The position numbers were made by a program, and so were the translations under genes. From positions 104,534-168,533 of the forward strand of contig JAHJCO010000019.1 of assembly GCA_018831265.1 (NCBI GenBank): DNA of 64,000 bases, read 5' to 3'. Positions 34,333 through 58,163 of the stretch are shown piece after piece. The stretch comes from Actinomycetota bacterium. Its GTDB lineage: Bacteria; Actinomycetota; Geothermincolia; Fen-727; Anoxymicrobiaceae. Position 1 is the first letter of the stretch, and every line of letters starts with the position of its first letter. Below the pieces are notes generated by a model that was not told the DNA's origin, did not search any database, and saw only the letters and a program-made list of their open reading frames with translations.

Positions 34333-34504
34333 GGTGGCTCTCCTTTACTTGCGCACTACCTGGCATAGATTCTAAACCCGGGCGTTGAATCCCGCACCCG
34401 GTCCGGCGTGACAACCCGGGGCAGGGCATCGGGCCCGGGCGTCGTATAGGAACCGTGCACGAGGAGTACAGGGATTGTAAGTGCCTGGCACGGGTCGGTG
34501 GGGG

Positions 34505-36220
34505 ATGGACTACAACATCAAGATCGGCGGGGCGGCGGGTCAGGGCATCCAGACCATCGGTGACACGCTCTCCGCGGTGTTCGCACGGTCGGGCTACCAC
34601 CTGTTCTCGCACCAGGACTACGAGTCGAGGGTGCGCGGTGGGCACAACTTCACCTGCATCAGGCTCTCGGACACCCCGGTGTACGCCCCGCGCGACCCCG
34701 TGGACGTACTCGTCGCGCTGGACAACGCGAGCATCGAGCGGCACACCGGGGAGCTTTCCTCCGACGGCAAGGTCGTCTACGACTCCGGGGGCTTGAAGAG
34801 GAAGGTCGACGATCCCCGGTTCGTAGACGTTCCTTTCGTAAGGCTCGCCGAGGAGCACGGGGGTAGGAAGGTCATGGCCAACACCGTGGCCTCAGGGGCG
34901 GTGCTGGGGATGCTGGGCGTCGAGGTGGACCTGCTGGTCGAGGCGCTCACAAGGGCGCTCAAGCACCCCACCCCCGAGATACTGGAGGGGAACGAGAGGG
35001 CCGCGCGCGCGGGGCACTCCTACGGCGTCGAGCACTGCCCGGACTGCCGGTTCGCGGTGTCGGGGAGGAGCGTGCGCAAGATGGTCATCGAGGGGAACCA
35101 GGCGATAGCCCTGGCCGCCATCGCGTCGGGCTGCAGGTTCTACTCCGCCTACCCCATGACTCCCTCCACCGGGATACTCAACTTCATGGCGTCGAAGGCC
35201 GCCGATTACGGCCTGGTCGTCGAGCAGGCCGAGGACGAGATGTCGGCCATAAACATGATCCAGGGGGCCTCCTTCGCCGGGGTCCGGTCCATGACCGGGA
35301 CCTCGGGGGGCGGCTTCGCGCTGATGGTGGAGGGCATGTCACTGGCCGGGATGACCGAGACCCCGGTGGTGGTGGTGCTGGCGCAGCGTCCCGGGCCGGC
35401 CACGGGCTTTCCCACCCGCACCGAGCAGTCGGACCTGCTGTTCGGGCTGTTCGCGGGGCACGGCGAGGTACCGCGTATCGCGTTCGCCCCCGGCACCCCC
35501 GAGCAGGCGTTCCGGGCGGTCAACAGGGCGTTCGACCTGGCGGAGAAGTACCAGGTCCCGGCCCTCATCATCACCGATCAACACTACGCGGACTCACGCT
35601 GGACCCTGGAGGGCATAGACCCCGAGACCTTCGTCTACAACGACTATCGTGTCGGGGGGGAGGCCTTCGCCGAGCTCCCCGAGTACGCGAGGCACTCCTT
35701 CACAGACAGTGGGGTCTCACCGCTGGCGGTCCCCGGCGACGCGCCCCACCTGGTGGTGACCGACTCCGACGAGCACGACGAGGAGGGGCACATCGTAGAG
35801 GACGCGGAGACCAGGGTGAAGATGGTGGAAAAGCGCCTGCTACGCAAGCTTCCGCTCATAGGGGCCGAGATGGAGCCGCCGGAGCACTACGGCAGCGACT
35901 CGCCGGAGGTGGTGCTGGTCGGCTGGGGCTCGAACTACGGGGTCCTGAGGGAGGCCGTGGACGCGCTCTCCGGGGAGCGGGAGGTCGCCATGCTGCACTT
36001 CTGCGACCTGTGGCCGTTCCCGCTTCCGGCCAGGCAGGAGTTCCTGGAGGTCCTGCGGGCAGCGAGGACCGCGATCTGCGTGGAGAACAACGCCACGGGC
36101 AAGCTGGCCTGGCTTATCCGGGCCGAGACCGGGTTCGAGTTCGCCGAGCGCATCAACAGGTTCGACGGAAGGCCGTTCACGTGTGAGGGCCTCCTGGAGG
36201 AGATAGATGGACGCCTCTGA
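34505..36220 (+). CDS. 2-oxoacid:ferredoxin oxidoreductase alpha subunit (gamma-alpha fusion type)
   Basis: N-terminal gamma-like IKIGGAAGQGIQT. Adjacent beta subunit. Confidence 0.9.
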   Translation: MDYNIKIGGAAGQGIQTIGDTLSAVFARSGYHLFSHQDYESRVRGGHNFTCIRLSDTPVYAPRDPVDVLVALDNASIERHTGELSSDGKVVYDSGGLKRKVDDPRFVDVPFVRLAEEHGGRKVMANTVASGAVLGMLGVEVDLLVEALTRALKHPTPEILEGNERAARAGHSYGVEHCPDCRFAVSGRSVRKMVIEGNQAIALAAIASGCRFYSAYPMTPSTGILNFMASKAADYGLVVEQAEDEMSAINMIQGASFAGVRSMTGTSGGGFALMVEGMSLAGMTETPVVVVLAQRPGPATGFPTRTEQSDLLFGLFAGHGEVPRIAFAPGTPEQAFRAVNRAFDLAEKYQVPALIITDQHYADSRWTLEGIDPETFVYNDYRVGGEAFAELPEYARHSFTDSGVSPLAVPGDAPHLVVTDSDEHDEEGHIVEDAETRVKMVEKRLLRKLPLIGAEMEPPEHYGSDSPEVVLVGWGSNYGVLREAVDALSGEREVAMLHFCDLWPFPLPARQEFLEVLRAARTAICVENNATGKLAWLIRAETGFEFAERINRFDGRPFTCEGLLEEIDGRL

Positions 36221-37058
36221 CGAGTTCAAGGGCCAGAAGCCGGCATGGTGCCCGGGGTGCGGCAACTTCGGGATACTGACGGCCTGGCGCAGGGCCATGG
36301 CGGACCTCGGGCTGAAGCCGCACCAGCTCACGGTGGTCTCGGGGATAGGTCAGTCCGGCAAGTTCCCGCACTACACGCAGTGCAACACCTTCAACGGCCT
36401 GCACGGGCGCACCCTGCCAGTGGCCACGGGGATACGGCTTGCCAACCACGAGATGCCGGTGGCCGCGTTCGCGGGGGACGGTGACTGCTACGGCGAGGGG
36501 GGCAACCACTTCCTCCACGCGATGCGGCGCAATATAAACGTCAAGCTGTTCGTGCACGACAACCAGGTCTACGGGCTGACCAAGGGCCAGGCCTCCCCGA
36601 CCAGCGTGGTCGGGATGAAGACACCGGTGCAGCCGGAGGGGGTCCTCTCCGACGAGATGAACCCGGTGGCCCTGGCGGTGGCGATGGACTGCAGCTTCGT
36701 GGCCCGCGGTTTCGCGGGAGACCTCGACCAGTTGGCCGAGCTGATGAAGGCGGCAATGGAGCACAGGGGCTTCAGCCTGGTGGACATCTTCCAGCCGTGT
36801 GTGACATTCAACCGGCTCAACACCTACCAGTGGTACAGGGAGAGGGTCAGGCCGCTGGAGGCGGAGTACGACCCGGGCGATCGCGTCACCGCCTGGCAGC
36901 GCGCGCTGGAGTTCGAGGACACCATCCCCACCGGCATCCTGTACAGGCACGAGCGACCCACCTACGAAGAGCGCGTGGCGGCGCTGGCCGCCGGCCCGCT
37001 GGTGAAGCAGCCGTTCGACGCGTCGAAGCTCGCGGCCGCCTTCCGCGAGTTCTACTGA
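36207..37058 (+). CDS. 2-oxoacid:ferredoxin oxidoreductase beta subunit (TPP-binding)
   Basis: CPGCGNFGIL and GDGDCYGEGGNH TPP motifs. Overlaps the alpha subunit stop. Confidence 0.9.
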   Translation: MDASDEFKGQKPAWCPGCGNFGILTAWRRAMADLGLKPHQLTVVSGIGQSGKFPHYTQCNTFNGLHGRTLPVATGIRLANHEMPVAAFAGDGDCYGEGGNHFLHAMRRNINVKLFVHDNQVYGLTKGQASPTSVVGMKTPVQPEGVLSDEMNPVALAVAMDCSFVARGFAGDLDQLAELMKAAMEHRGFSLVDIFQPCVTFNRLNTYQWYRERVRPLEAEYDPGDRVTAWQRALEFEDTIPTGILYRHERPTYEERVAALAAGPLVKQPFDASKLAAAFREFY

Positions 37059-37059: not shown

Positions 37060-37176
37060 TGAAAGAAGACCTCAAACCATTTCTTTCATTCTGGAGGATG
37101 AGGCGGACTGAAAGTTTTGGTCTGAGGTAATCTTTCACAGGTTTCTGTGAAAGAATCGGTCTGAGGTAATCTTTCA
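37060..37176. promoter_or_regulatory. Three-unit module of the TGAAAGAA...GGTCTGAGG...TTCTTTCA palindrome (37060..37088, 37109..37137, 37148..37176) filling the 5' region of the CoA-transferase-GNAT gene. The last unit overlaps the ATG.
   Basis: Units read directly. The GAGGT SD-like sequence sits in the loop of the last palindrome, 8 nt before ATG 37176. Confidence 0.75.
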
Positions 37177-40132: not shown

Positions 40133-40410
40133 GGTCATCCCTTACGTCCCGGTGTAACTTTTGTCACATGGAGCGTAGCGCCTCCCCCTGCGTCTGGCAT
40201 ATGAGCCCGGTCAACCCGGGCCCCACCCCGCGCCCACCCGGGCGCCCGCAGTGAGAGGCGCTGATGTCGGGAGTTCAACGCCCGGGGCCCGAATCCTGCA
40301 CGCGCCTGAGATTATTCCGAAGTCTGGCCCCGTCATTCGTGACGGTTCAGTCACGGGACCATTTTCCCGATATACCATGTGGGGGTCGGACGCCTATCCA
40401 GGGGGTAGTC

Positions 40411-43400
40411 ATGGGCAAGAGAGCGACCGCACCGATTGCATGCTTTCTCGTGCTGGTGGGACTCGTGTTCGGGGTCGGGTGGAACTGCCGGTCGGCGAGC
40501 GCGGGGCGGGCGGAGATCTCCGGCGACCACGTGCCGGGCGAGGTAATCGTCAAGTTCAAGCCCGCGGTGGCGGCCAGCACCGAGGACGCCGTACTGGCAA
40601 CGGAACGACTCACAGTCAAGCACGAGAACGAGCGGCTTGGCTTCAAAGTGGTCGACCTTCCCGGAGGCACCTCGGTTGCTGAGGCCGTGGCCGATCTTTC
40701 TGCCGACCCACGGGTGGAGTATGCCGAGCCCAACTACATCGACCACGTCCTCGATGAGCCTGCGATGGTCCCCGACGATCCCCTGTACCCCAGCCAGTGG
40801 CACATGCACGGCTTCGCCGAGGGCGGCATCGACGCCCAGACCGCCTGGGACACCGAGGAGGGCGACCCCACGGTCATAGTGGCGGTGGTGGACACCGGGG
40901 TAGCCTACGAGAACTACGGGAGTTACAGCCAGGCGCCGGACCTGGCGGGTACCACCTTCGTTTCGCCGTACGACGCAATCGACCTGGACGGGCACCCGAA
41001 CGACACTAACGGCCATGGGACGCACGTGACCGGGACCATAGCCCAGACGACCAACAACGCGCTGGGGTGCGCCGGCGCAGCCCACGGGTGTACCATTATG
41101 CCTGTGAGGGGCATCGGTACGCATTCCCAGATGGCCGATGCCTACACCTGGGCCACCGACCACGGGGCGGATGTGATCAACTACAGTGGCGGCGGTAGCG
41201 CTTCGGAGACAAAGAGGGCCGCCTGCCAGTACGCGTACGACAACGGTGTCACCATCTGCGCCGCTACCGGGAATGACAACGGCCCGATTATTTACCCGGC
41301 GGCATATGATCTGTACTGCATCGCCGTAGGGGCCACCGACCGTAACAAGAACCGCGCATGGTACTCCAACTACGGTCCGCAGATAGACGTTGTCGGTCCC
41401 GGTGGGGACACGACAGGCGGGTCGGTGAACGGCGTCTGGCAGCAGACCTACGTGACCGAAGACGACCCCTCCAGCGGCTTCAATTACCAGGGCTGGCAGG
41501 GGACGTCAATGGCCACGCCTCACGTGAGTGCGACGGCTGCTCTCTATATCTCAAACTCGGGGATAATCAACAACCCCGACGCGGTGAGGTCCCGTCTCCA
41601 GACCACGGCACACGACCTCGGCGGAGCCGGCTGGGACCAGTACTTCGGTTACGGGCTGGTTGACGCGAACCTCGCGGTGATAGCCGACAATCCCGTGCCG
41701 GTCACCACATCCATTTCGCCTGACAACCGGAACGCCGGGGCCCCCGGCTTCACCCTGACCGTCAACGGGGCGGGATTCGTAGCGGACTCACAGGTCCGCT
41801 GGAACGGCTCAGACCGCACCACGACCTACATATCGGGCAACCAGCTGACGGCGCAGATCGCGGCCGGAGACATCACAACCGCCGGGAGCGCCCTGGTCAC
41901 CGTGTTTAACCCCGCTCCGGGGGGCGGCACCTCCAACGTACAGACATTCGACATCCAGACCCCGGTGAACCCGGCACCGAGCATTTCATCGCTCTCACCT
42001 GACCACGCGACGGCCGGCGGCCCCGGGTTCACCCTGACCGTCAACGGTACGGGGTTCATCGGTGATTCGCAGGTGAGCTGGAATGGCGCGAACCTTCCCA
42101 CCACTTACGTCTCGAGCACCAGGCTCACGGCTACCGTCCCGGCGGCGAGCATCGCCGGCGGAGGGGCCGCACAGGTGTGCGTGTCGAACCCCCCGCCCGG
42201 GGGAGGGGAGTCGGCCGCGAAGTCGTTCTCCATCGTCCAGGCCGCCTCGGAGTGGTACCTGGCCGAGGGCACGACCGGTTGGGGCTTCGACACCTACGTA
42301 TCGATCGTCAACCCCAACGACAGCGCGGTGAACGCTCAGGTGACCTACAACACAACGAGCGGCCCGATGGACGGAGGCACGGTGAACATGCCGCCCGAGA
42401 GCCGGGCCACCGTCTACCCCAGGGACGTCCTGGGCGAGGCCGACTTCTCGACCACGGTGACCTGCGCGGGGGGAAAGCCGATAGCGGTGGACCGCACCAT
42501 GACATGGACCGGCACGGGGGCGGCCGCCGCCGAGGAGCACTCCTCCATAGGGGTCACGGCCCCCGCTACCACCTGGTACCTGCCCGAGGGCTCGTCCGCA
42601 TGGGGGTTCGAGACCTGGCTGCTCATCCAGAACCCTGGCGCGACCGGCGCGACCTGCCAGGTCACCTACATGCTGGAGGGCGAGCCGCCGGTCACGGTCC
42701 AGAAGGGCGTCCCGGCCGGCTCCAGGCAGTCCTTCAACATCGCGGAGGACATCGGGACCAGGGATGCCAGCATCTCCGTTGTGTCCGACGCGCCCGTCAT
42801 CCCCGAGCGCGCCATGTACAAGGACGCCCGGCGCGAGGGCCACGACTCCATAGGCACCACCACCCCGGCGGCCGACTACTACCTGGCGGAGGGCACCACG
42901 GCCTGGGGGTTCACCACCTACGTGCTGGTGCAGAACCCGCAGGACCAGGCGGCCGACGTGACCGTCACCTACATGACACCGGAGGGTGCGCTCGAGCAGC
43001 CTGCCTTCAGCCTGCCCGCGAACTCACGCAAGACCATAAGGGTCAACGACGTGAGCCCCGCGGCCGGCTACCCCATAGACGTCTCCAACACCGACTTCTC
43101 GACCCGGGTACACGCCAGCAAGCCCATAATCGCGGAGCGGGCTATGTACTGGGAGTCCGAGACGGGCCAGGCCTGCCACGACTCCATCGGTATGAGCGAG
43201 CCGCACGCGACCTTCTACCTGCCTGACGGACAGGCGGGAGCCCAGGTGGAGACCTGGACCCTGGTGCAGAATCCCAACGGCACCCCGGTCGAGGTCGAGG
43301 TGACCTACCTCTCGCCCGACGGCACCGCGAACAAGACCTTCACCGTCACCATCCCCGCCAATTCCCGCTCTACCTTCAACATGGCCGATCAGGGCGTAGA

Positions 43401-43521
43401 CGGAAGGGCCGGGATCATGGTCACCTGCCTCACTCCCGGCGCGAAGATCATGGCCGAGCGCGCCATGTACTTCGACAACAGGTCCGGCGGTACGGATACC
43501 ATAGGCGGCTACAGCGATTAG
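40411..43521 (+). CDS. Secreted S8 subtilisin-like serine protease with Fn/Ig-like spacer domains and tandem C-terminal ~105-aa repeat modules (paralog of 18200..21253)
   Basis: Signal peptide MGKRATAPIACFLVLVGLVFG. VVDTGV, HGTHVTGTIA and GTSMATPHVS motifs. Repeats WYLAEGTTGWGF...VNPN. Confidence 0.9.
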   Translation: MGKRATAPIACFLVLVGLVFGVGWNCRSASAGRAEISGDHVPGEVIVKFKPAVAASTEDAVLATERLTVKHENERLGFKVVDLPGGTSVAEAVADLSADPRVEYAEPNYIDHVLDEPAMVPDDPLYPSQWHMHGFAEGGIDAQTAWDTEEGDPTVIVAVVDTGVAYENYGSYSQAPDLAGTTFVSPYDAIDLDGHPNDTNGHGTHVTGTIAQTTNNALGCAGAAHGCTIMPVRGIGTHSQMADAYTWATDHGADVINYSGGGSASETKRAACQYAYDNGVTICAATGNDNGPIIYPAAYDLYCIAVGATDRNKNRAWYSNYGPQIDVVGPGGDTTGGSVNGVWQQTYVTEDDPSSGFNYQGWQGTSMATPHVSATAALYISNSGIINNPDAVRSRLQTTAHDLGGAGWDQYFGYGLVDANLAVIADNPVPVTTSISPDNRNAGAPGFTLTVNGAGFVADSQVRWNGSDRTTTYISGNQLTAQIAAGDITTAGSALVTVFNPAPGGGTSNVQTFDIQTPVNPAPSISSLSPDHATAGGPGFTLTVNGTGFIGDSQVSWNGANLPTTYVSSTRLTATVPAASIAGGGAAQVCVSNPPPGGGESAAKSFSIVQAASEWYLAEGTTGWGFDTYVSIVNPNDSAVNAQVTYNTTSGPMDGGTVNMPPESRATVYPRDVLGEADFSTTVTCAGGKPIAVDRTMTWTGTGAAAAEEHSSIGVTAPATTWYLPEGSSAWGFETWLLIQNPGATGATCQVTYMLEGEPPVTVQKGVPAGSRQSFNIAEDIGTRDASISVVSDAPVIPERAMYKDARREGHDSIGTTTPAADYYLAEGTTAWGFTTYVLVQNPQDQAADVTVTYMTPEGALEQPAFSLPANSRKTIRVNDVSPAAGYPIDVSNTDFSTRVHASKPIIAERAMYWESETGQACHDSIGMSEPHATFYLPDGQAGAQVETWTLVQNPNGTPVEVEVTYLSPDGTANKTFTVTIPANSRSTFNMADQGVDGRAGIMVTCLTPGAKIMAERAMYFDNRSGGTDTIGGYSD

Positions 43522-45293: not shown

Positions 45294-46383
45294 TCAAGGT
45301 GAGTTCAGCCTGATGAAATCCTCGAGCTTCCCCTTCTCGGATAGTATCGCCAGGCCCACGTCCCGGCCGGTCGCCGCGGGCTCCGGTACGCCCTCGCGCC
45401 GCACCAGGGTGAGGGCGCGCTCCGGGCATCCCGTCACGCACAGACCGCAGCCGATGCATCTGGCCGGCTCGACCGTGGCGAGGTCGTCCACGACCAGTAT
45501 GGCCCCCATCACGCAGCGCTGATCAGCGCAGGTCCCGCACCCCACGCAGACGTCCGGATCGACCTCGGGCAGGAACCCGCTGCTCACCAGCACGCTCGGG
45601 TTGTCGAACTCGGTGAGGGAGCGAAGCAGGTGACAGCAGCACGGGCAGCAGTTGCATATCAGGCTCAGCTTGTCCCGCGAGTTGTTGACCTGGTGGACCA
45701 GGCCGGCCTCGTCCAGCTCGCGAAGCATCCGCTTCATCTCGTCTTTGGTGATGTACCGGGCGAAACCGTGCTCGACCAGGAAGTCGCAGGCGCCGTCGAA
45801 GACCATGCACGCCTCGCGCGGGGCGTCGCAGCGCTGCTCGCTCTCGCGGCAGGCGCAGTGGGCGATCCCGACGGCCTTCGCCCGGTCGATGAGGTCGTAG
45901 AGCATCTCGCAGGTGAGGACCCCGGGCGCGCTCTCGACCTCCTCCTGGATCGGGACGATGCGGGATATCGCCATGCCGGGGCTGCCCAGACCCTTGCCCA
46001 GCACCGGCATGTAGGCTCGCCACAGGGGCGCCAGCCTCTCGGTGAGCTCGTTACTCTCGCCCTTCATGAACGGGAACTCGAACAGCCCCGGCATCACCGG
46101 GAGCAGGGAGTATCGCGTCGTGCCGTCCTTCTCGCGCGCCATTACAACCCCGCGGTCGGCGAGCGCCTCCAGCACCTCCGCCGCGCCGGGCGCGGGAAAC
46201 CCGGCCTTCTCCGCCACCTCGTCCGGGGCTCGGGGGACGAACGCCAGGCCGCAGGCCAGCAGCGCCTCGTCCTCGCTGAACAGGAGGCGCAGTATCTCGT
46301 CTATCTCGGGCGCCGGTGGGCAGCCGGTCACGTAAGTGTCGATGTTCCGGCGCAGCTGCTCGTATACGTCGTCCTCTTCCATA
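45294..46383 (-). CDS. Uncharacterised Fe-S protein, long paralog. Winged-helix-like N-domain, Cys-rich domain with a C-N-C-C-P-C-C-C motif, and 2x[4Fe-4S] ferredoxin domain.
   Basis: LICNCCPCCCHLLRSL. CVGCGTCADQRC and CIGCGLCVTGCP. GAGGAGG SD before ATG 46383. Confidence 0.7.
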
Positions 46384-46489
46384 GTGCTCCTCCTCGCTCC
46401 CTCCGCGGCACGGGCCATGAGACCACGTTCCTTCAGATAAACTATATGATGTGTGCGGATAAGGAAATGACGGCTGACGGAGCCCGGAC

Positions 46490-47926
46490 ATGCACCCCTT
46501 GAAGCAGTTGATGTACCCGGAGTCGATCGCGTTCTGGGGCGCGTCCAACAACCCCATGAAGATGGGGACCATGCAGCTCGCGAACGTGCTGGAGACCGGA
46601 TTCGCGGGCGATGTCTACCCCGTCCACCCCACCGAAGCGACCGTGCTGGGTCTGCCCGCGTACCGGAGCATCGCCGAGGTGGGCGGGCCCGTGGACCTCG
46701 CCCAGCTCACCCTCCCAACCGACCTGGTGCCGGGGGTGCTCGACGAGTGCGGCCGGGCCGGGATCCGTCGCGCCATAGTCATCTCGGGCGGCTTCAAGGA
46801 GGTGGCGGGCGAGAAGGGCAGGGAGCTCGAGCGCGAGGTGCTACGGGTGGCGCGCAAGCACGGGATCCGCTTCCTGGGCCCCAACTGCGTGGGCGTCTTC
46901 AACTCGATCGTATCGCTGAACTCGACCACCATCCCGCGGCCCCCGGCAGGCGGCAGGATAGCCTTCGCTTCGCAGTCGGGCGCCTACACGGCCATGATGA
47001 ACCCGTACCTGTGGTCGCAGGGGATAAGGACGTGCCAGACCATCAGCGTCGGGAACGAGGCGGACATAGACCTGGTCGACTGCCTTGATTTCCTGGCCGA
47101 GGAGCCGGAGGTGAACGCGGTAGGGCTCTACATCGAGACGGTCAGGCGGCCCCGCGAGTTCATCGAGGCCGCCCGCGAGACCGTGAAGAGCAAGCCGGTT
47201 GTCGCCGTGTACGTCGGCGGGGGAGAGGCGGGGTCGCGCTCATCGCTTTCTCACACGGGGGCGCTCACCGGGCCGGAAGTGCTCTACGAGGGGCTGCTAC
47301 GCCAGGCGGGGGTCATGATCGCTGACGACCTGGACCGGATGATGGACATGCTGCATGCCCTGTCGCTGGCACCGCTGCCGGCCGGCGGGCGCATGGCGGT
47401 GGTGAGCAACTCCGGCGGGCCGGGGACCTCGCTCGCCAACCAGGCAGAGAAGGCGGGCCTGGCCGTTCCCCTGTTCTCGGACGCGCTCCAGGAGCGGCTG
47501 AAAGCCGAGACCGGGAGGCTGGCCTACGTCGGCAACCCCATCGACCTGACCTTCGAGGTGGACCTGTCGCTGTTCGAGCGGCTGATCGAGATCGTGTTCC
47601 AGTCGGGGGAGGTGGACGGCGCCATGCTGTACGGCATCTTCGGCTGGCCCGACTTCATCGTGAACCTGGAGAAGCGCTTTCCCGCCCTCGAGCAGTTCCG
47701 CGCGGAGTGGGAAAAGGGCTACCTGGAATTCCTCGGCCGCCTCGCCGCTATCCCGGAGGCACACGGCAAGCCGCTCATCGTGATGTCCTTCTCCAGGGCG
47801 GAGGGCCCGTCCATGGACCCGCTCATCAGGAAAGGCGTCCCGGTCTACCCGTCGGCCAACCGCTGCGCCCGCGCAATGAGCTCCCTCGTCCGCTACCGGG
47901 AAACGCGGGATCAGCACCCCATGTAG
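46490..47926 (+). CDS. Stand-alone alpha-type subunit of ADP-forming acetyl-CoA synthetase (CoA-binding plus CoA-ligase domains), with no beta/ATP-grasp partner nearby
   Basis: CoA-binding N-terminus. Conserved phosphohistidine loop SHTGALTG. 478 aa. Confidence 0.8.
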   Translation: MHPLKQLMYPESIAFWGASNNPMKMGTMQLANVLETGFAGDVYPVHPTEATVLGLPAYRSIAEVGGPVDLAQLTLPTDLVPGVLDECGRAGIRRAIVISGGFKEVAGEKGRELEREVLRVARKHGIRFLGPNCVGVFNSIVSLNSTTIPRPPAGGRIAFASQSGAYTAMMNPYLWSQGIRTCQTISVGNEADIDLVDCLDFLAEEPEVNAVGLYIETVRRPREFIEAARETVKSKPVVAVYVGGGEAGSRSSLSHTGALTGPEVLYEGLLRQAGVMIADDLDRMMDMLHALSLAPLPAGGRMAVVSNSGGPGTSLANQAEKAGLAVPLFSDALQERLKAETGRLAYVGNPIDLTFEVDLSLFERLIEIVFQSGEVDGAMLYGIFGWPDFIVNLEKRFPALEQFRAEWEKGYLEFLGRLAAIPEAHGKPLIVMSFSRAEGPSMDPLIRKGVPVYPSANRCARAMSSLVRYRETRDQHPM

Positions 47927-47930
47927 CAAC

Positions 47931-48002
47931 AGTGTTTCAAAAGTGCCTGACCCTTTTGCTACACTCGACTCATCTGACTTGACTGCCGCCTGACCCCCGG
48001 CT
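47931..48002. repeat. Compound GGGTCAGGC-family repeat. Minimal hairpin CAAAAGTGCCTGACCCTTTTG plus a second GCCTGACCCC end and a CTGAGTCAC flank.
   Basis: Read directly, between convergent genes. Confidence 0.55.
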
Positions 48003-48005
48003 GAG

Positions 48006-49898
48006 TCACTCGCCGAATGGCATCTGGAGGTAGTACACCCCCGAATCGATGTTCTGTTCCAGAGTGAACATCTTCTCGAAGATGTGGTACATGGGCTTGT
48101 TCTCGACCAGAACCTCCGCCGTGAAGCCGAGCAGGCCGTGGCGCTTGGCGAGCTGGGTCAGGTAGGCGAGCAGCTCGGTGCCAATCCCCTTGTCCTGGTA
48201 CTGGTCGCCCACGACGAAGGCGACGTCGGCGGTGTGGTGGGCCTCGTCGATGTCGTAGGAGCCCATCCCCGCGATAATCTCCCTGTCACCCTCGTGGACC
48301 ACCGCCAGTATGATCATCTCCCTGGTGAAGTCGATGACCACGAACTCCTGGAGGCGCTCGTGGGGCATGTCCGTGCGCATGGAGATGAACCGCCTGTACA
48401 TGCTGTCGTCGGAGAGAGAATAGAAGAAGTCCTTGAGGGCGGGCTCGTCGCTGATGCGAACCGGGCGGAACAGCACCTCTACCCCGTCCCGGGTGGTCCG
48501 GTATGTCTCCAGCTCCTCGGGGTACTGGCCCTTCTCCCCGGGGATGAACGCCTGGTCGGGATAGACCAGGTTCAGCCGCCTGGCCTCGGAGATAAGCCAC
48601 TGCTGGAACCTCGGGTGTGCGATGGCGATGAGCTCCATGGCCCGCTCGCGCACGTTCTTGCCGTGCAGGTAGGCGATACCGAACTCGGTGACCACGTAGT
48701 GGATGTCGCCCCGGGTCAGGGTCACCCCGGCCCCCTCGCCGACGAACGGCACGATCCTGGATACCTCCCCGTCCCCCGCGGTCGAGGGCAGCGCCAGGAT
48801 GGTCTTCCCCCCCGGCGCCAGTACAGCGCCACGCATGAAGTCGGCCTGACCGCCTATACCGGAGTAGAACTGCCGGCCGATGGACTCGGCCGTCGACTGA
48901 CCAGTAAGGTCGATCTGCAGGGCCGTATTAATCGCCGTCATGTTGTGGTTTCGGGCTATGTTAAGCGGGTTGTTGGTGTAATCGATGGGCCTGAACTCAA
49001 TGGACGGGTTGTCGTCGATGAACTCGTAGGTATCGGCTGTACCCATACAGAAAGTGGCCACGGTCTTGCCGCGGTCGATGGTCTTGCGACTGTTGTCGAT
49101 GACCCCCTTGCGGATCAGCTCCACGATACCGTCGCTGAGCAGCTCGGTGTGGACGCCCAGGCTCTTCTTGTCCGACAGGTTCGCGAGGATGGCGTTGGGG
49201 ATGCTCCCGTAGCCGACCTGGATGGTGTCCCCGTCCTCGATGATGCGGGCCACGTACCTGCCCAGCTGCAGGGTCAGCTCGTCGGAGACACTGGGAGCGT
49301 ACTCCAGAAGGGGCTCGTCGAAGGGCACCACGAAGTCGACGTCGTCCATGTGCACGAAGGTGTCGCCGTGCACCCGGGGCATCCGGCAGTTCACCTGCGC
49401 TATGACGACGGAGGCCTTCTCGACGCCGGCCTTGGTGATGTCCACGCTCACGCCCAGGCTCATGTACCCGTTCCTGTCCGGGGGCGAGGTCTGCACCAGT
49501 GCTACGTCGATAGGGATGAAGCCCCTGCGGAACAGGTCGGGGACCTGCGAAAGAAATACCGGGGAGTAGTCGGCGAGCCCCTGGTTGACCGCGTCCCGGG
49601 TGTTGTCCCCGATGAAGAAGGAGTTGTGGCGGAAGTTGTGGCGGAACCTCTCCTCGGCGTACGGCGCGACGCCCAGCGTCCAGACGTGGAACACCTCGGT
49701 ATCGTAGAACGCCTTGGGGTGAGAGTCGACGTACTCGGCCAGGGACGCCACCAGGTGCTGCGGCTCCCCGCATCCCGTGCCCACGAAGAGGTGGTCACCC
49801 CTCCTGATACGGTCGAACACCTTCTCCTCCGGGACGAACTTCCCGGCGCTGCCGAGACGCATCCTCTCCATGGCTTCAGCGCACTCCCGCGGGTCCAT
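48006..49898 (-). CDS. Bifunctional acetyl-CoA hydrolase/transferase-family domain fused to a C-terminal GNAT acetyltransferase domain (paralog of 37176..39056)
   Basis: Co-linear similarity to the other paralog over the full length. GNAT motif DKGIGTELL. GGGAGGTG SD before ATG 49898. Confidence 0.8.
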   Translation of the reverse strand: MDPRECAEAMERMRLGSAGKFVPEEKVFDRIRRGDHLFVGTGCGEPQHLVASLAEYVDSHPKAFYDTEVFHVWTLGVAPYAEERFRHNFRHNSFFIGDNTRDAVNQGLADYSPVFLSQVPDLFRRGFIPIDVALVQTSPPDRNGYMSLGVSVDITKAGVEKASVVIAQVNCRMPRVHGDTFVHMDDVDFVVPFDEPLLEYAPSVSDELTLQLGRYVARIIEDGDTIQVGYGSIPNAILANLSDKKSLGVHTELLSDGIVELIRKGVIDNSRKTIDRGKTVATFCMGTADTYEFIDDNPSIEFRPIDYTNNPLNIARNHNMTAINTALQIDLTGQSTAESIGRQFYSGIGGQADFMRGAVLAPGGKTILALPSTAGDGEVSRIVPFVGEGAGVTLTRGDIHYVVTEFGIAYLHGKNVRERAMELIAIAHPRFQQWLISEARRLNLVYPDQAFIPGEKGQYPEELETYRTTRDGVEVLFRPVRISDEPALKDFFYSLSDDSMYRRFISMRTDMPHERLQEFVVIDFTREMIILAVVHEGDREIIAGMGSYDIDEAHHTADVAFVVGDQYQDKGIGTELLAYLTQLAKRHGLLGFTAEVLVENKPMYHIFEKMFTLEQNIDSGVYYLQMPFGE

Positions 49899-49914: not shown

Positions 49915-50037
49915 TGAAAGAATACCTCAGACCAAAACTTTCATCCGCGCGGAAGAAAACCTCAGACCAGTTCTCTCGCGGGGTTTGCTGCCGTGGGTTG
50001 GTGAATAGTGAAAGAAATGGTTTGAGGTTTTCTTTCA
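49915..50037. promoter_or_regulatory. Second three-unit module of the TGAAAGAA...GGTCTGAGG...TTCTTTCA palindrome (49915..49943, degenerate 49952..49976, 50009..50037), upstream of the minus-strand CoA-transferase-GNAT paralog
   Basis: Read on the minus strand, the order and orientation (complement form, then two GGTCTGAGG forms, then SD-ATG) match the 37060..37176 module. Unit 49915..49943 differs by 1 nt from unit 37109..37137. Confidence 0.75.
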
Positions 50038-50050: not shown

Positions 50051-50869
50051 TCAGTCCTTGCGCTCCAGGAACCCCGCGGCGCCTTCCACCGACCTGTCCT
50101 GCTGCCACATCTTGAAGAGGGGATCGCCTGTCTCGAGGACTTGCCTGATCCTCCTGATGGTGTCACCGCGGAGCTGGGTCTTGACCCGGTTGTAGACCAG
50201 GGTTGAGAGGGCCCCCAGTTCCGACGCCTTCTCCAGCGCCCTGGGTATCAGGCGCTCGGGCGCAACGAGCTCATCGAGGACCTCACCCTCCAGGGCTTCC
50301 CGGGGACCGATTGGCCGACCGGTGAGGATGAGCCTCCTGGCCATCGCCGGAGTCAGCTCGGACTTGAGGACCTCCATGGTGGAGATCGGGAACGGTATTC
50401 CCACCCTGACCTCCGAGACCCCCATCTGGTAGGAGCCCTCCGCGCCTACGCGGTAGTCGCACGACATCATCAGGATGAAACCCCCGGCGACGGCATGCCC
50501 GTTCACCGCCGCGATGATCGGCTTGGAGGCGCCGTAGACACCCGTTATCACCCTGTTGGTGATGTCCATCAGCTCCTTCTGGTCCTCGGGCGAGTAGAAG
50601 GGAACCACCTTGAGGTCCAGCCCGGCGCAGAAGCACGGGCCGTCCCCGGTGACTATGATGGCTCGGACGGCGTCGTCGGCCTCGAGAGCGCCCATGCTCG
50701 CCTCGGCCTCCCGCAGCAACTGCAGGTCGACCGCGTTCACCGGCGGCTTGGTCAGCTTCAGAAACGCTATCTCACCTTCGCGATCTACTGTTACGCTGCT
50801 CACTGCTCTCACCTCACGACGTCGAACGACAACCACCCCGGGACTGAAGTCCCGACCCAAGCCTCGCAA
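50051..50869 (-). CDS. Enoyl-CoA hydratase/isomerase (crotonase fold)
   Basis: AAVNGHAVAGGFILMMSCD oxyanion-hole region. The true start is probably downstream of the ORF start. Confidence 0.85.
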   Translation of the reverse strand: MRGLGRDFSPGVVVVRRREVRAVSSVTVDREGEIAFLKLTKPPVNAVDLQLLREAEASMGALEADDAVRAIIVTGDGPCFCAGLDLKVVPFYSPEDQKELMDITNRVITGVYGASKPIIAAVNGHAVAGGFILMMSCDYRVGAEGSYQMGVSEVRVGIPFPISTMEVLKSELTPAMARRLILTGRPIGPREALEGEVLDELVAPERLIPRALEKASELGALSTLVYNRVKTQLRGDTIRRIRQVLETGDPLFKMWQQDRSVEGAAGFLERKD

Positions 50870-51024: not shown

Positions 51025-52299
51025 CTACCTCAGCAACTCGATCGCGGCGAGATACACCAGCAGTACCACCGCCAGCACTACCACGGTCACGACCGAGGTC
51101 GGCAACAGGAGCAGCAGCAGGAACACGACGACAGCGCCCCCGATGCGGAACGCCCAGGCGTGCTCGCCGAGGAAAGCGCTTACCGGCCCGGGTGCCGCCT
51201 CTCCACTCTTGCGCCGCTCCCTCCAGCTCGAGAACAGCCCGCCGACCTTCGTGCGCACCCAGACCGCCCATTTGTAGGGCCCGGCGACGGCGGCCCCAAC
51301 GGCCAGCAGCAGGCCGAACACCAGCAGCCCCCAGTCGGTCACCCTGAGACCGTGGAACAGGTGCGTCCAGATCACCTGCGCGGCCTCCTTGTTGGCGGGA
51401 ACCTTTATCTGGTCCAGTAGCACGACCTTGGTGATATTGAGCGCGATGAGGACTATCGCGGTGGCGATGGCCAGGCCGATCCCGACCCCCATGGTCGCCT
51501 TCCTACGGTCGGGCGCGATAACAATCGCGACACCGAAGAACACCAGCGAGAGTGCCGGAAGCAGCCAGTTCAGCGTCTCCAGGAGGTCCACGCCGTGCTT
51601 TATGGCCCCCAGCTGCTCGGCCTCGAACAAGGTCACCTGGCCGGCGCTCTCCGGGATGGGAACGTTCTCCAGTACGGTGAGGCCCTGTTCCACCAGGTCG
51701 TCCTTAATACCGTTGAGCAGTGCCCCGATGTCGAGCACGACCTGGCCCTGTTCGTTGATCGACACGTCGCCTTCGCCGGTCAGCACCTTGACCGCCTGCG
51801 AATGGGCCAGTGACACGATCTTATCCAGGACCACCTGGAACTGATCGCTCTTGAGGATCTCCTCGGCAGCCTTCTTCGCGGCGCTCTCGAGCCCGCCGGC
51901 TATCGGCTCGGCGATGAAATCCAGTTCGGGGTCGATCTTCTTGACGGCGCTCTCCACCTTGCCCACGATGTCCACCTGCTCGAACAACCTCTTGACGGCG
52001 ACGTCCGAAATAGCTTTGGCGACTGCTTCCTCCTGGACGATGGGCACCATCGTGTTGGTGAAGTCCTTCGTGTTCAGGGCGGTGGCGTCGAGCCATGTGG
52101 CGAGCACGCCCCCGAAGGCGCTGATGCTGCCGAGGACGATGAGGAGCCAGACTACGAAGCTTATCCAGAAGTGCTTCCTCGGCTTCTTCGGTTGCGAGAG
52201 CTGAGCCTTCAGCGCCTCGTTCTCGGCCCGGAGCTTCTCCAGCTCGTCGGGCGCCTCGCTGCCACCCTCGCCCGCGCCCTGGTCCTGCTCCTCCGCCAT
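51025..52299 (-). CDS. Hypothetical membrane protein with an N-terminal coiled-coil and at least 4 TM helices
   Basis: ELEKLRAENEALKAQL coiled coil. Hydrophobic segments. Confidence 0.6.
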   Translation of the reverse strand: MAEEQDQGAGEGGSEAPDELEKLRAENEALKAQLSQPKKPRKHFWISFVVWLLIVLGSISAFGGVLATWLDATALNTKDFTNTMVPIVQEEAVAKAISDVAVKRLFEQVDIVGKVESAVKKIDPELDFIAEPIAGGLESAAKKAAEEILKSDQFQVVLDKIVSLAHSQAVKVLTGEGDVSINEQGQVVLDIGALLNGIKDDLVEQGLTVLENVPIPESAGQVTLFEAEQLGAIKHGVDLLETLNWLLPALSLVFFGVAIVIAPDRRKATMGVGIGLAIATAIVLIALNITKVVLLDQIKVPANKEAAQVIWTHLFHGLRVTDWGLLVFGLLLAVGAAVAGPYKWAVWVRTKVGGLFSSWRERRKSGEAAPGPVSAFLGEHAWAFRIGGAVVVFLLLLLLPTSVVTVVVLAVVLLVYLAAIELLR

Positions 52300-52693: not shown

Positions 52694-53716
52694 CTACCGC
52701 GCCAGCTCGCCTGAGAAGTCGGCGTACTCCGTGAAGCCGGTGCCGCTCCACAATGCGGAGCTCCTATAGGGGTGGTGGTAGGCGCCCTCGAACTCGAAGC
52801 CGAGGAACCCGCCACCCGGCAGCACCGGCGCGACCGGCGTCGCCGCGCGTGCCACGTATCGGAACTCCCCCCGGCTGTCCCGCATCACGCCCTCCCAGCT
52901 CGCGGGGACCAGGAACTCGCGCCCGTCGGGACGGGTGCCCTGGGCGAACTCCAGGTAGCGCAGCGAAAGCCCGCGCATCGGTACCTCGTTCCGCCCGGGC
53001 AGCCGTGCGGCGGCCTTGAGCCCCAGGAACGGCTCGCCCTTCAGGCTTATGCTCAAGCCGGCGGCGGACTCGGCCCGGCCCCCCGGGGTGTGGAACGCCA
53101 GCACGTCCCAGTGGTAACCGAACGGAAGACGCCTGGTGAAGTCGAAAGGCAGCGAGGTCCCGCTCACGTGCTCGATGACCCCGAAGCCGGCATGGGTCTC
53201 CTCCGTCTCGCCCCGCCAGAGTGTCAGGCGCAGTGTCGAGTGCTGGCCGACGTAGGAGAGGAGCCGGCCGTAACGCGCCCACCAGATCGGCCAGGAGGCC
53301 TGGAAGTCGAACGAGGCTCCAGACCCGGACTCTGGCAGGGAGAACGACATCCCGTAGCGGGGGCGCGAGCCGGCCAGCGCGAACCTCCCCGGCAGCGAGA
53401 CACGCACCGAGTCGGTTGACGACTCCAGCGGACCGGGGTCCACCTTTCCGGTGAACGTCTCGACCCCGTCATCGGTCGCCCAGGAGAGCATGACCTCGCT
53501 CTCCACCAGGCACTCCACCGCCGACAGGGGGTGCCATCCCGCGGGGCCGCCCTTCCTGAAGAAATGCGCCTTCGCCCACCGGAGCGTCGAGCCGGCCGGG
53601 AAGATCCCGATGGCGAACCAGCCGTCCCAGGTCGCCCCGCTGGTCGGCAGGAGGTGAACCGCGCCGGGCACCCGGTGGACTGACCCACCCAGAGACGGGA
53701 TGTTTATCTCGCGCAT
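52694..53716 (-). CDS. Hypothetical protein (beta-rich, Trp/Gly-rich)
   Basis: Protein-like composition across about 340 aa. No recognisable motif. Confidence 0.45.
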   Translation of the reverse strand: MREINIPSLGGSVHRVPGAVHLLPTSGATWDGWFAIGIFPAGSTLRWAKAHFFRKGGPAGWHPLSAVECLVESEVMLSWATDDGVETFTGKVDPGPLESSTDSVRVSLPGRFALAGSRPRYGMSFSLPESGSGASFDFQASWPIWWARYGRLLSYVGQHSTLRLTLWRGETEETHAGFGVIEHVSGTSLPFDFTRRLPFGYHWDVLAFHTPGGRAESAAGLSISLKGEPFLGLKAAARLPGRNEVPMRGLSLRYLEFAQGTRPDGREFLVPASWEGVMRDSRGEFRYVARAATPVAPVLPGGGFLGFEFEGAYHHPYRSSALWSGTGFTEYADFSGELAR

Positions 53717-53875
53717 CGAAACACTCCTTGTGAGGTCCCGCATATCATATGGCAAGACAGCCTCAGCAGGTAGGCCTGGAGTGCGCGCGGCGCCTCATCC
53801 CGGCAGGGGTCCGCGGCATCGGGTAGAAGGTTATATAATCGGCCTGATGGGCGCTTCGAGCGGGAGGTATGGAGG

Positions 53876-54681: not shown

Positions 54682-56070
54682 ATGACGATATCCGGCATGG
54701 ACACGTTCTTCAACCCTCGGGGAGTCGCCCTGGTGGGTGCGCGCAGCACCCCCGGCTTCGGCTTCGGCATCCCCCTGGTGCTGAGGCGCGAGGGGTGGGA
54801 CGACCGGCTCTACCTGGTCAACCCGAGGGGCGGTGAGCTCCACGGCTACAGCGTCTACGCGGATGTCGCGGGTGTGCCGGACCCCGTCGACCTGGCTATC
54901 GTTGTCGTCCCGGCACTGTCTGTCCCAGGCGTGCTGGAGGAGGTCGCCGATCGCGGGATACGCCACGTCATCATCGAGAGCGCGGGATTCGCGGAGGTGG
55001 GCGGCGACGGGATCGCCCTGCAGGAGGCGGCCCGCGAGGTGGCGGCGCGCAGGGGGATGCGCATCATCGGTCCCAACTGCGTCGGTGTGGTCAACACCTC
55101 CCACCACTTCACCTCGGTCGAGGTCATCGAGGAGGCGATGCTCGGGGGCACGACCTCCATCATCGCGCAGAGCGGCGTGTTCGGCGCCGTCATGCTGGAC
55201 ATGCTGTTCCAGTACGGGCTGCACGTCTCCAAGGCCGTGACGCTGGGCAACCGCATGGACGTCGACGAGTGCGACATGCTGGATTACCTCGCGGGTGACG
55301 ATGCCACCCGTTCGATAATGATGTATCTGGAGGGGGCGAGAGACGGCCGCAGGCTCAAGGAGACGCTCGGCCGCGTCGCCTCCGGGAAGCCGGTGCTCAT
55401 CCTGAAGAGCGGGCGCAGCGAGGCCGGGCGCCAGGCGACCGCCTCCCACACCGCGAGCCTGTCGGGGGAGGACGAGATATACGAGGCGGTGTTCCGCCAG
55501 ACGGCCGCCGTCCGAGCGGGCAGCCTGGAGGAGCTGGTTGAGATGACCCGTGTGTTCTCGACACAGCCGATGCCGCGGGGCTCCCGACTCGGCATCGTCA
55601 CCTCGAGCGGGAGCCTGGGAGTACTGGCGACGGACGCGGCGGCGGCAATCGGGCTGGAGGTCCCACCGCTGTCGGAGGGATCCGCGGACAGGGTGGCCGA
55701 GGCAGCCCCCGGCTGGATGAACGTGCGCAACCCGGTGGATGTGGGACCCAGCCCGCAGTTCCCGGTCGCGCTCGAGGCTCTTCTCGGCGACACCGGTGTG
55801 GACATGGTCCTTGGGATAGCGGTCCTGCCGTACTTCATCTTCAGAGAGGTCACCAGCCGCGGTTCGACGGGGCATACCTGGTTCGGGGACGTGGCGGCCA
55901 TCCGCGAGCGCCACCCCGGCAAGCCGTTCGCCATCTGCGCGGTCGGGCACAGCGATTTCGTAGACAGGGTCCGGGAGCTCTCCGGCCCCCAGGTGCCGGT
56001 CTTCGTATCCCCGGAGCCCGCGGTCAGGGCCCTGGCCGCCCTTACCCGCTACGCCTCGATGCTGAGGTGA
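54682..56070 (+). CDS. Second stand-alone alpha-type subunit of ADP-forming acetyl-CoA synthetase
   Basis: Phosphohistidine loop ASHTASLSG. Co-linear with 46490..47926. Confidence 0.8.
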   Translation: MTISGMDTFFNPRGVALVGARSTPGFGFGIPLVLRREGWDDRLYLVNPRGGELHGYSVYADVAGVPDPVDLAIVVVPALSVPGVLEEVADRGIRHVIIESAGFAEVGGDGIALQEAAREVAARRGMRIIGPNCVGVVNTSHHFTSVEVIEEAMLGGTTSIIAQSGVFGAVMLDMLFQYGLHVSKAVTLGNRMDVDECDMLDYLAGDDATRSIMMYLEGARDGRRLKETLGRVASGKPVLILKSGRSEAGRQATASHTASLSGEDEIYEAVFRQTAAVRAGSLEELVEMTRVFSTQPMPRGSRLGIVTSSGSLGVLATDAAAAIGLEVPPLSEGSADRVAEAAPGWMNVRNPVDVGPSPQFPVALEALLGDTGVDMVLGIAVLPYFIFREVTSRGSTGHTWFGDVAAIRERHPGKPFAICAVGHSDFVDRVRELSGPQVPVFVSPEPAVRALAALTRYASMLR

Positions 56071-58134: not shown

Positions 58135-58163
58135 TGAAAAAAGTGGTCTGAGGTTATTTTTCA
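58135..58163. repeat. Solo unit of the GGTCTGAGG palindrome family (TGAAAAAAGTGGTCTGAGGTTATTTTTCA) overlapping the stop codon of 58154..58663
   Basis: Read directly. Confidence 0.65.

Follow-up and report, generated by a model that had tools for sequence, protein, structure and literature searches.

A CoA-transferase-GNAT fusion family with a predicted Pat-type acetyltransferase domain and its links to ADP-forming acyl-CoA synthetases

Bacterial lysine acetyltransferases are sorted into types I to V, the regulatory domains of which are ACD-like (i.e., resembling ADP-forming acyl-CoA synthetases, ACDs), cAMP, ACT or NADP domains, with no class involving a CoA-transferase (PMC8556138, PMC12184503). 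The ACD-like regulatory domain of Pat is inactive and lacks the catalytic histidine (PMC8556138). In Escherichia coli, the CoA-transferase YdiF makes lactyl-CoA, and the GNAT protein YiaC uses lactyl-CoA for lysine lactylation (PMC9636275). The present report considers a 64-kb stretch of DNA (64,000 nucleotides; hereafter, the window) from an Actinomycetota bacterium (GenBank assembly GCA_018831265.1, contig JAHJCO010000019.1, positions 104,534 to 168,533) that encodes two proteins, termed FUS1 and FUS2, each joining a CoA-transferase domain to a C-terminal GNAT domain, as well as two ACD alpha subunits, termed ACDa1 and ACDa2.

On sequence grounds, the fusion is best read as a variant of the Pat-type acyltransferases in which the CoA-transferase domain stands in place of the known regulatory domains. 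More fully, and with a probability put at roughly 0.55, the fusion would serve as an acyl-CoA-responsive lysine acyltransferase that uses the CoA-transferase fold as regulator and works together with an ACD, with the alpha-only ACD subunits encoded in the window being ordinary enzymes. A preliminary description of the window had proposed a possible Pat-like acylation module that includes ACDs, or else plain CoA-ester metabolism. Of this proposal, the Pat-type nature of the GNAT domain and the association with ACDs at the level of the family stood, whereas such a module is not shown by the window's own alpha-only ACD genes.

The fusion proteins and their family

All four open reading frames (ORFs) were found at the positions listed in Table 1, and the public gene calls for the contig concur. 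FUS1 and FUS2, each encoded by a single ORF, matched the Pfam domains AcetylCoA_hydro (PF02550; E values of 5e-45 and 2e-48, respectively), AcetylCoA_hyd_C (PF13336; 2e-61 and 4e-64) and Acetyltransf_1 (PF00583; 2e-13 and 8e-11), with all matches exceeding the gathering scores and both AcetylCoA domains reaching 154-216 bits against cutoffs of ~24. As such, the presence of two CoA-transferase-GNAT fusion genes, as put forward in the preliminary description, was borne out. The two proteins are 69% identical overall, the CoA-transferase parts being more alike (77%) than the GNAT parts (55%). FUS2 is 100% identical to a protein from a metagenome-assembled genome at NCBI that is called 'GNAT family N-acetyltransferase'.

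The CoA-transferase domain of the fusions is ~50% identical to solved 4-hydroxybutyrate CoA-transferases (PDB entries 9vag, 3eh7, 2oas and 3gk7; E values down to 1e-125). The predicted nucleophile of FUS2, Glu252, was located by alignment to AbfT, the nucleophile of which we take to be Glu238; a full-text literature search for AbfT Glu238 returned no match. When 64 homologues at least 70% identical were aligned (alignment A2), H250, E252, G347, G349, G350, A352, D353 and F354 proved invariant. Because these catalytic motifs do not vary in the clade to which the window belongs, the CoA-transferase domain looks catalytically competent there and is, judging from its residues, probably still a working enzyme that interconverts acyl-CoAs with acetate. 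Its substrate cannot be assigned, since the fusions score 273-276 bits against the TIGR03948 model, far below the equivalog cutoff of 674.8.

Of the two affinities of the GNAT domain weighed in the preliminary description, namely, to Pat-type protein acetyltransferases or to small-molecule acetyltransferases, it was the former that was found. A single-sequence search of the PDB with this domain returned as best matches an E. coli-type Pat (9it0), Streptomyces PatA (4nxy/4u5y) and MtPat (4ava), followed by MsPat (4orf and two more entries) and Sulfolobus Pat (3f8k). A profile built from 12 GNAT sequences (A3) was likewise used to search the PDB, yielding matches to PatZ (E value of 3.5e-32), SlPatA (1.4e-30), MsPat and MtPat (~1e-19) and Sulfolobus Pat (SsPat; 8e-13). 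The nine top distinct PDB sequences were all of the Pat family and the whole domain was covered (positions 3-175), with small-molecule and N-alpha GNATs appearing only after a wide gap, at 4e-9 or weaker and with partial coverage. In NCBIfam, the top match of the GNAT part was NF058543, the mycobacterial 'acetyltransferase Pat' model (E value of 2.6e-23; 82 bits against a cutoff of 460); the JGI label for this part is RimJ/RimL-like. Within motif A, Q568, G571, I572 and G573 showed no variation in alignment A2. The general-base position, corresponding to SlPatA E123 and to PatZ E809, the proposed catalytic residue of the latter (PMC12184503), is occupied by Glu in FUS1 and most other members and by Asp in FUS2 and its Actinomycetota clade. 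By these comparisons, the fusion GNAT is Pat-type.

The fusion represents a large family for which no curated model or paper was found, with no NCBIfam model reaching its cutoff on the fusion and a full-text literature search locating no paper on a CoA-transferase-GNAT fusion. The best 120 database clusters, at 71-100% identity, all present the same architecture, with the source names being only 'GNAT family N-acetyltransferase' or 'acyl-CoA hydrolase/GNAT'. When the search was centered on the GNAT domain, the 150 closest representatives of 50%-identity clusters included 75 CoA-transferase-GNAT proteins, 71 GNAT-only proteins (many of them short), one ACD-GNAT protein and one GNAT-ACD protein. 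Genome matches were obtained in Actinomycetota, Thermoplasmatota archaea, FCPU426, Nitrospirota, Anaerolineae, Balneolales, Deltaproteobacteria, Leptospirales, Desulfobacteraceae and Bipolaricaulota. The fusion is abundant in uncultured anaerobes, both bacterial and archaeal, with 62-79% identity across phyla and a mean column identity of 74% in the main clade.

The constancy of the two domains was addressed in an alignment comprising 30 full-length representatives of 50%-identity clusters, together with FUS1 and FUS2. On the GNAT side, the motif A glycine (G571) was found in 32 of the 32 sequences and an acidic general base in 30. At the position of the CoA-transferase nucleophile, Glu was found in 19 sequences, Asp in five and a non-acidic residue in seven, while the GGQxDF motif was often degenerate. 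In the subclades that have lost the nucleophile, HTE is replaced by HSP, HTI, HTV, HTC, HTS or HLA. Given the constancy of the GNAT motifs and the variation of the CoA-transferase nucleophile, the common function of the family would rest on the GNAT. That the CoA-transferase fold can turn into a pseudo-enzyme, much like the ACD-like domain of Pat, is the main argument for assigning the N-terminal domain a ligand-sensing role alongside the GNAT.

Several members of the family and its surroundings deserve mention in their own right. The representatives without the nucleophile (P0265, P0315, P0329, P0331, P0337, P0354 and P0365) have also lost GGQxDF, and CoA-transferase pseudo-enzymes with HSP for HTE and with the GNAT motifs kept are encoded in two of the compared loci (L014, 9965-11920; L015, 4429-6318). 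P0331 (967 aa) carries a 356-residue Cys-rich, Fe-S-like extension ahead of the CoA-transferase-GNAT portion, while P0315 (965 aa) carries ~420 additional C-terminal residues that are of low complexity and rich in Arg and Pro, possibly reflecting a frame error. Finally, single-chain GNAT-ACD and ACD-GNAT proteins, namely, P0379 (914 aa) and P0269 (625 aa), are among the nearest GNAT relatives and have kept the SHTG phosphohistidine motif. These sequences hint that Pat types I and II could descend from pairs of a GNAT and an active ACD of this sort.

ACD genes beside the fusion and in the window

To relate the fusion to ACDs, 105 loci were compared by tblastn with the relevant domains, of which ~60 were informative. 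In ~33 of the latter (~55%, in a sample neither dereplicated nor randomly drawn), the fusion is directly adjoined by a full-length ACD comprising the alpha and beta parts and bearing the catalytic histidine; a further three contain a full-length ACD within the flank, and 24 do not. The order is fusion and then ACD in 19 complete cases and three cut by contig ends, usually with a gene encoding a 345-residue AAA_26-DRTGG protein coming next. Other arrangements were also seen, with the ACD preceding the fusion in a clade at ~50% identity (e.g., L091) and the two genes being divergent in L046, L087 and L090. The genes can be tightly packed, given that in L091 the fusion begins 3 nt past the ACD stop codon and that in Bipolaricaulota the three genes (fusion, ACD and AAA_26-DRTGG) overlap by 4 nt. 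The fusion-linked ACDs are ~700 residues long, contain ATP-grasp_5 and an intact AASHTGSLAG loop, and are nearest to the characterized ACDs 8wzu and 4xyl, not to Pat. That varied gene orders occur with different ACD subfamilies argues for functional coupling of the fusion and the ACD, and the link between the two at the level of the family is real.

The AAA_26-DRTGG protein was seen after the fusion-linked ACD in 21 loci from many phyla (e.g., L020, 14016-15053; L003, 13993-15024; and L002, 4636-5670). It corresponds to the N-terminal regulatory half of a class II phosphotransacetylase (PTA) without the PTA domain, and may be a regulatory subunit of the ACD. A full-text literature search found no description of an ACD-DRTGG pairing or of a fusion-ACD-DRTGG operon. 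In Desulfovibrio, a similar PTA-less protein, DVU3031, is encoded next to pta-ack (PMC4481167).

The ACD genes of the window differ from those just described. In agreement with the preliminary description, ACDa1 and ACDa2 are alpha-type subunits, each comprising the Pfam domains CoA_binding_2 and Succ_CoA_lig and an intact phosphohistidine loop; the SHTG of ACDa1 and the SHTA of ACDa2, containing His255 and His256, respectively, align with the SHTG of full-length ACDs. The two are 30% identical to each other and each is 30-35% identical to the fusion-linked ACDs. In the PDB, ACDa1 best matches two alpha subunits of archaeal ACDs, 2csu and 4xyl_A, and the TIGR02717 scores of ACDa1 and ACDa2 are 363 and 360 bits, against a cutoff of 567. 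All of the 120 closest homologues of ACDa1 are alpha-only, none containing the ATP-grasp beta part. Across 1.25 Mb of compared loci, 34 alpha parts are followed by a beta part, with alpha-only genes being found solely in the lineage of the window.

The absence of a beta (ATP-grasp) gene nearby, also noted in the preliminary description, held when examined further. A tblastn search of the window with four beta domains revealed no beta gene (best E value of 0.087), and the adjoining parts of the source contig, ~5 kb to the right and ~7 kb to the left, likewise yielded none, such that ~76 kb were covered in all. An alpha gene without a neighboring beta gene is a known and ordinary layout, since the ACD genes of Thermococcales are arranged in this manner. 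Pyrococcus furiosus contains five alpha and two beta ACD genes, with the alpha and beta genes of ACS1 and ACS2 being reported as unlinked, while any alpha subunit pairs with either beta subunit, and these enzymes take the acyl-CoA products of 2-oxoacid:acceptor oxidoreductases (OFORs) in peptide fermentation (PMC3942289). Judging from their sequences and from this parallel, the simplest reading of ACDa1 and ACDa2 is as ordinary catalytic alpha subunits belonging to heteromeric ACDs, with the beta gene being inferred to lie elsewhere in the genome. A role in 2-oxoacid and peptide fermentation would fit the OFOR, ferredoxin, flavodoxin and protease genes that the window contains.

As also stated in the preliminary description, one alpha gene, ACDa1, is convergent with a fusion gene, FUS2, with 79 nt between the stop codons. 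Because they are convergent, the two cannot be co-transcribed. This pair recurs only in L106 and L107 (100% nucleotide identity) and in L001 (90-95%). In GCA_020723485.1, the orthologues of the fusion and of ACDa1 lie on different contigs, and on three further contigs from Actinomycetota, the ACDa1 orthologue has other neighbors, with no beta gene and no fusion gene in its vicinity. As such, the proposal of a split Pat with orphan alpha subunits was not upheld, since the catalytic histidine is kept, the ACDa1 and FUS2 genes converge and other Actinomycetota do not share this pairing.

Surroundings of the fusion genes in the window

Table 1. Positions of the features considered in the 64-kb window (position 1 is its first nucleotide).
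Feature	Position	Strand	Details
OFOR, alpha/gamma and beta subunits	34481-36220, 36207-37058 (together 34481..37058)	+	TIGR03710 633 bits and TIGR02177 351 bits, both above cutoff; Pfam; immediately 5' of FUS1
Repeat cluster upstream of FUS1, three copies	37060..37176	.	RNA fold -47 kcal/mol, z -4.0
FUS1, paralogous CoA-transferase-GNAT fusion, 626 aa	37176..39056	+	Single ORF; Glu248 37917-37919; GNAT base Glu554 38835-38837; motif A QKQGIG 38865-38882
ACDa1, alpha-only ACD subunit, 478 aa	46490..47926	+	Phospho-His255 47252-47254; SLSHTGALTG; Pfam, NCBIfam
FUS2, CoA-transferase-GNAT fusion, 630 aa	48006..49898 (stop codon 48006-48008)	-	Single ORF; PF02550 + PF13336 + PF00583
FUS2 Pat-type GNAT domain, aa 456-630	48009..48533	-	Best PDB matches all Pat-family lysine acetyltransferases
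FUS2 GNAT motif A/P-loop QDKGIG, aa 568-573	48180..48197	-	Fits Q/R-x-x-G-x-G/A (PMC8556138)
FUS2 Asp558 codon, Pat general-base position (PatZ E809)	48225..48227	-	Alignment to PatZ
FUS2 CoA-transferase domain, aa 1-455, 4-hydroxybutyrate/butyryl-CoA:acetate type	48534..49898	-	E 1e-125 to 9vag, 3eh7
FUS2 GIGGQADF motif, aa 347-354, CoA-transferase domain	48837..48860	-	Conserved in solved homologues
FUS2 Glu252 codon, predicted CoA-transferase nucleophile, motif LGVHTE	49143..49145	-	Gapless alignment to residue 238 of AbfT chain 3gk7
Repeat cluster upstream of FUS2, copies in opposed orientation	49915..50037	.	RNA fold -50.5 kcal/mol, z -5.9
Enoyl-CoA hydratase family gene (ECH)	50051..50869	-	Pfam ECH_1; upstream of FUS2, same strand
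ACDa2, second alpha-only ACD subunit, 462 aa	54682..56070	+	His256 55447-55449; ASHTASLSG

The window has a G+C content of 65%, with that of third codon positions (GC3) being near 0.9, and its relatives in the databases carry the labels Geothermincolia or Anoxymicrobiaceae. All likely genes were annotated with Pfam. In this manner, a two-subunit OFOR, several ferredoxin-domain proteins, a flavodoxin, an acyl-CoA dehydrogenase, an enoyl-CoA hydratase, two large S8 subtilases, an S9-like peptidase and a CdhD-like protein were identified. Going by these annotations, the gene content gives the picture of an anaerobic fermenter of acyl-CoAs and peptides. Within the 64 kb, large secreted S8 subtilases that carry a fervidolysin-type prodomain and DUF5719 repeats are encoded more than once (7-987, 18200-21277 and 40264-43521), consistent with a peptide-degrading lifestyle.

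The OFOR and ECH genes that flank the fusions in the window are not conserved neighbors. An OFOR-FUS1 pairing as a conserved operon was rejected, given that an OFOR is near the fusion in none of ~100 other loci, as was an ECH-FUS2 pairing, with an ECH gene lying near the fusion only in the close relative L001 and in two other loci. A scan for promoters and terminators between 46300 and 50200 found none. Further upstream of ECH and FUS2 are two ORFs that are also conserved in strain L001, namely, 51025-52299 (minus strand; 424 aa) and 52694-53755 (minus strand; 353 aa), neither of which gave a match in Pfam or NCBIfam.

Divergent from ACDa1, and followed by flavodoxin and ferredoxin genes, is one of a pair of paralogues (45294-46418, minus strand; and 14908-16005, plus strand) that are 35% identical, ~370 residues long and share a C-terminal ferredoxin domain with two [4Fe-4S] clusters. 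The protein encoded at 45294-46418 also matches a TrmB/DUF7342-type helix-turn-helix at its N-terminus, and could be a redox-sensing regulator. In other Actinomycetota (L017, 7852-8640; L018, 7202-7996; and L019, 28-822), a heliorhodopsin gene is found ~2 kb from the fusion gene, which adjoins genes for two amine-oxidase-family flavoproteins, a neighborhood shared by two assemblies.

Upstream of both fusions lies a palindromic leader that the preliminary description had taken as a sign of their co-regulation. Examination of the window revealed this leader to be composed of a 29-nt element, TGAAAG-N4-GGTYTGAGGT-N2-TCTTTCA, of which there are nine copies, with none expected by chance. These are found at four intergenic sites, as clusters of ~117-130 bp at 32499-32628, 37060-37176 and 49915-50037, and as a single copy at 58135-58163. 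In each cluster, a single inverted copy accompanies one or two direct copies, with the terminal copies being in inverted orientation together with an internal copy, and the whole folds as a long hairpin. At FUS1, where the last copy ends on the first base of the ATG start codon (37176-37178), the hairpin is predicted to bury a Shine-Dalgarno-like GAGG and to reach that first base. Of the remaining sites, one cluster sits between convergent genes ending at 32464 and 32630, and the solitary copy lies upstream of an unrelated, beta-lactamase-like gene. The element is absent from all compared loci except copies of the same genome and, in L001 (90-95% nucleotide identity), is missing at the FUS2 site, where the upstream spacer is a different sequence. 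While the shared leader was thus found as described, its use as evidence of co-regulation was rejected, given the dispersed copies, the cluster between convergent genes and the absence in L001. From its sequence and distribution, the element looks like a strain-specific dispersed repeat, similar to repetitive extragenic palindromes or miniature inverted-repeat transposable elements, and may affect expression locally.

Proposed function and comparison with described systems

If the fusion is a Pat-type lysine acyltransferase, then the CoA-transferase fold would stand where known Pat enzymes have their regulatory domain (ACD-like, cAMP, ACT or NADP), with the binding of acyl-CoA and acid to this fold setting GNAT activity. 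Across the family, the CoA-transferase would supply the ACD with acetyl-CoA or other acyl-CoAs from which ATP is formed, while the GNAT would acylate an acyl-CoA synthetase, be it the ACD itself or the AMP-forming Acs, such that futile cycling at the acetate/acyl-CoA node would be avoided. The fusion and the ACD would in this way jointly control the conversion of acyl-CoA into acid and ATP. We infer in this scheme that a protein rather than a small molecule is the substrate, that the CoA-transferase domain is regulatory and that the target is one of these synthetases.

Several points weigh against such a role. The affinity of the GNAT for Pat is one of sequence and is no proof of a protein substrate, and the general-base position of FUS2 is occupied by Asp, not Glu. 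The higher conservation of the CoA-transferase part between FUS1 and FUS2 may mean that selection acts mainly on a metabolic enzyme. The share of loci with an adjoining ACD comes from the non-random, non-dereplicated sample noted above, and in Actinomycetota, including the window, the fusion adjoins no full-length ACD and no clear Acs target. The beta subunit assumed for ACDa1 and ACDa2 was not found either, with Pfam detecting no ACD beta (ATP-grasp_5) gene in any called ORF of the 64 kb. Acs as a conserved neighbor and target was considered and set aside as too weak, since AMP-binding homologues occur in 14 of ~100 flanks, not clearly above chance, with Acs genes being close to the module in only a few lineages (L003, L012 and L093). 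Finally, an AlphaFold2 model of FUS2, based on 64 sequences, was poor (mean pLDDT of 68; pTM of 0.51), such that no statement is possible on how the domains communicate.

A rival account is plain CoA-ester metabolism, in which the CoA-transferase (e.g., butyryl- or 4-hydroxybutyryl-CoA:acetate) is the primary activity, no signaling by protein acylation takes place, and the GNAT acetylates a small molecule or the N-terminus of the enzyme itself, or else is a structural appendage. A CoA-transferase and an ACD alone would make a sensible ATP-yielding pair, much like the cycle of acetate:succinate CoA-transferase and succinyl-CoA synthetase. Likeness of the domain to solved 4-hydroxybutyrate CoA-transferases with all catalytic motifs, its greater conservation relative to the GNAT together with the 74% mean column identity of the main clade, the placement of FUS1 after OFOR and of FUS2 after enoyl-CoA hydratase, and the RimJ/RimL-like name given to the GNAT part at JGI all speak for it. 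Yet the OFOR and ECH neighbors are not conserved, the GNAT is nearest to Pat protein acetyltransferases over its whole length and far from small-molecule GNATs, and it is the CoA-transferase nucleophile, not the GNAT motifs, that is lost in about one-quarter of the representatives, contrary to what would be expected if the GNAT were decorative. Plain metabolism is accordingly held to be rather unlikely. The same loss of the nucleophile bears on the possibility that the fusion is a self-supplying, acid-dependent acyltransferase, in which the CoA-transferase makes a non-acetyl acyl-CoA from a free acid and acetyl-CoA for use by the fused GNAT, such that the acyl groups placed on lysines (butyryl, propionyl, hydroxybutyryl or lactyl) would mirror the amount of the fermentation acid present. 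Although YdiF and YiaC provide a two-protein precedent in E. coli (PMC9636275), and although the main clade retains both active sites and the fusion of the two activities is strongly conserved, clades devoid of the nucleophile still keep the GNAT, and hence donor synthesis cannot be the general role; nor does the poor model of FUS2 lend structural support to channeling. Self-supply is thus distinctly doubtful as an account of the family.

A disassembled type I or II Pat, with the alpha-only ACDs of the window serving in trans to sense acyl-CoA and regulate the fusion GNAT, could draw on the strong association of fusion and ACD across the family in several gene orders, on the order of GNAT then ACD that mimics type II Pat, on the existence of single-chain relatives (P0379 and P0269) and on the 79 nt that separate ACDa1 from FUS2. 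All fusion-linked ACDs are, however, full-length alpha-beta proteins to which the alpha-only subunits of the window are but 30-35% identical, and these subunits keep the catalytic histidine, unlike the regulatory domain of Pat. Moreover, the convergent ACDa1/FUS2 pairing is confined to L001, L106 and L107, with the orthologues being on separate contigs in GCA_020723485.1 and those of ACDa1 having other neighbors elsewhere. A split Pat is, therefore, very improbable. A bolder extension of the lysine acyltransferase reading, put forward as speculation and considered improbable, would join the fusion, the adjacent ACD and the AAA_26-DRTGG protein into one complex that serves as an 'acetate switch' controller in anaerobes and is ancestral to Pat types I and II. 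Here, the CoA-transferase would read the pool of fermentation acids and acyl-CoAs and, where active, make the matching acyl-CoA, which would be passed to the fused Pat-type GNAT that acylates and throttles the ACD or Acs. Types I and II would have arisen upon fusion of the GNAT to the neighboring ACD, followed by loss of the catalytic histidine.

The fusion family is tied to the ATP-yielding step of fermentation, namely, that catalyzed by the ACD. Should the GNAT control an ACD or Acs, energy conservation at the acetate/acyl-CoA node would have in the fusion one of its main regulators in subsurface and sediment communities. The operon further suggests a way in which Pat may have originated, and one that can be tested, given that the nearest relatives include GNATs fused to histidine-bearing ACDs and GNATs merely adjacent to ACDs.

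Among described systems, the fusion resembles Pat/PatZ (YfiQ; type I) and Streptomyces PatA (type II), with which it shares full-length GNAT homology, including the YPxxLE lead-in, motif A and the position of the acidic base, as well as the tying of the GNAT to an acyl-CoA-binding enzyme fold and, at the level of the family, to ACD-type proteins. Whereas the partner in these Pat enzymes is an ACD-like domain without histidine, that of the fusion is a family-I CoA-transferase with its catalytic residues kept, the ACD in other phyla being a separate and apparently active enzyme encoded next door; the fusion is also shorter (~630 residues, as compared to ~890). With type III Pat (MtPat and MsPat with a cAMP domain, and the ACT- and NADP-GNATs), the likeness lies in the mycobacterial Pat model being the best NCBIfam match of the GNAT part. 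By contrast, the N-terminus of the fusion is a 450-residue enzyme fold that binds the class of acyl donor, rather than a small sensor of a second messenger or amino acid. The AbfT/Cat2 enzymes and butyryl-CoA:acetate CoA-transferases are ~50% identical over 420 residues, with the nucleophilic Glu and GGQxDF conserved, yet the characterized enzymes are stand-alone proteins of ~430-450 residues without a GNAT. YdiF and YiaC likewise pair a CoA-transferase with a lysine-acylating GNAT (PMC9636275), but as two unlinked proteins, of which YdiF belongs to another CoA-transferase subfamily and YiaC is a type IV GNAT and not Pat-type. As for the alpha-only genes of the window, these resemble the heteromeric ACDs of Thermococcales (ACS1-5 alpha subunits and two beta subunits) in their length of ~460-480 residues, their phosphohistidine loop and in not requiring linkage of alpha and beta genes, differing in that the host here is bacterial (Actinomycetota). 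The N-terminal region of the fusion (PF02550 and PF13336) is none of the regulatory domains described for Pat, be they ACD-like without histidine, cAMP, ACT or NADP-Rossmann. As such, the fusion family would represent a sixth design beside types I-V, in which an enzyme of the acyl-CoA pool doubles as the sensor.

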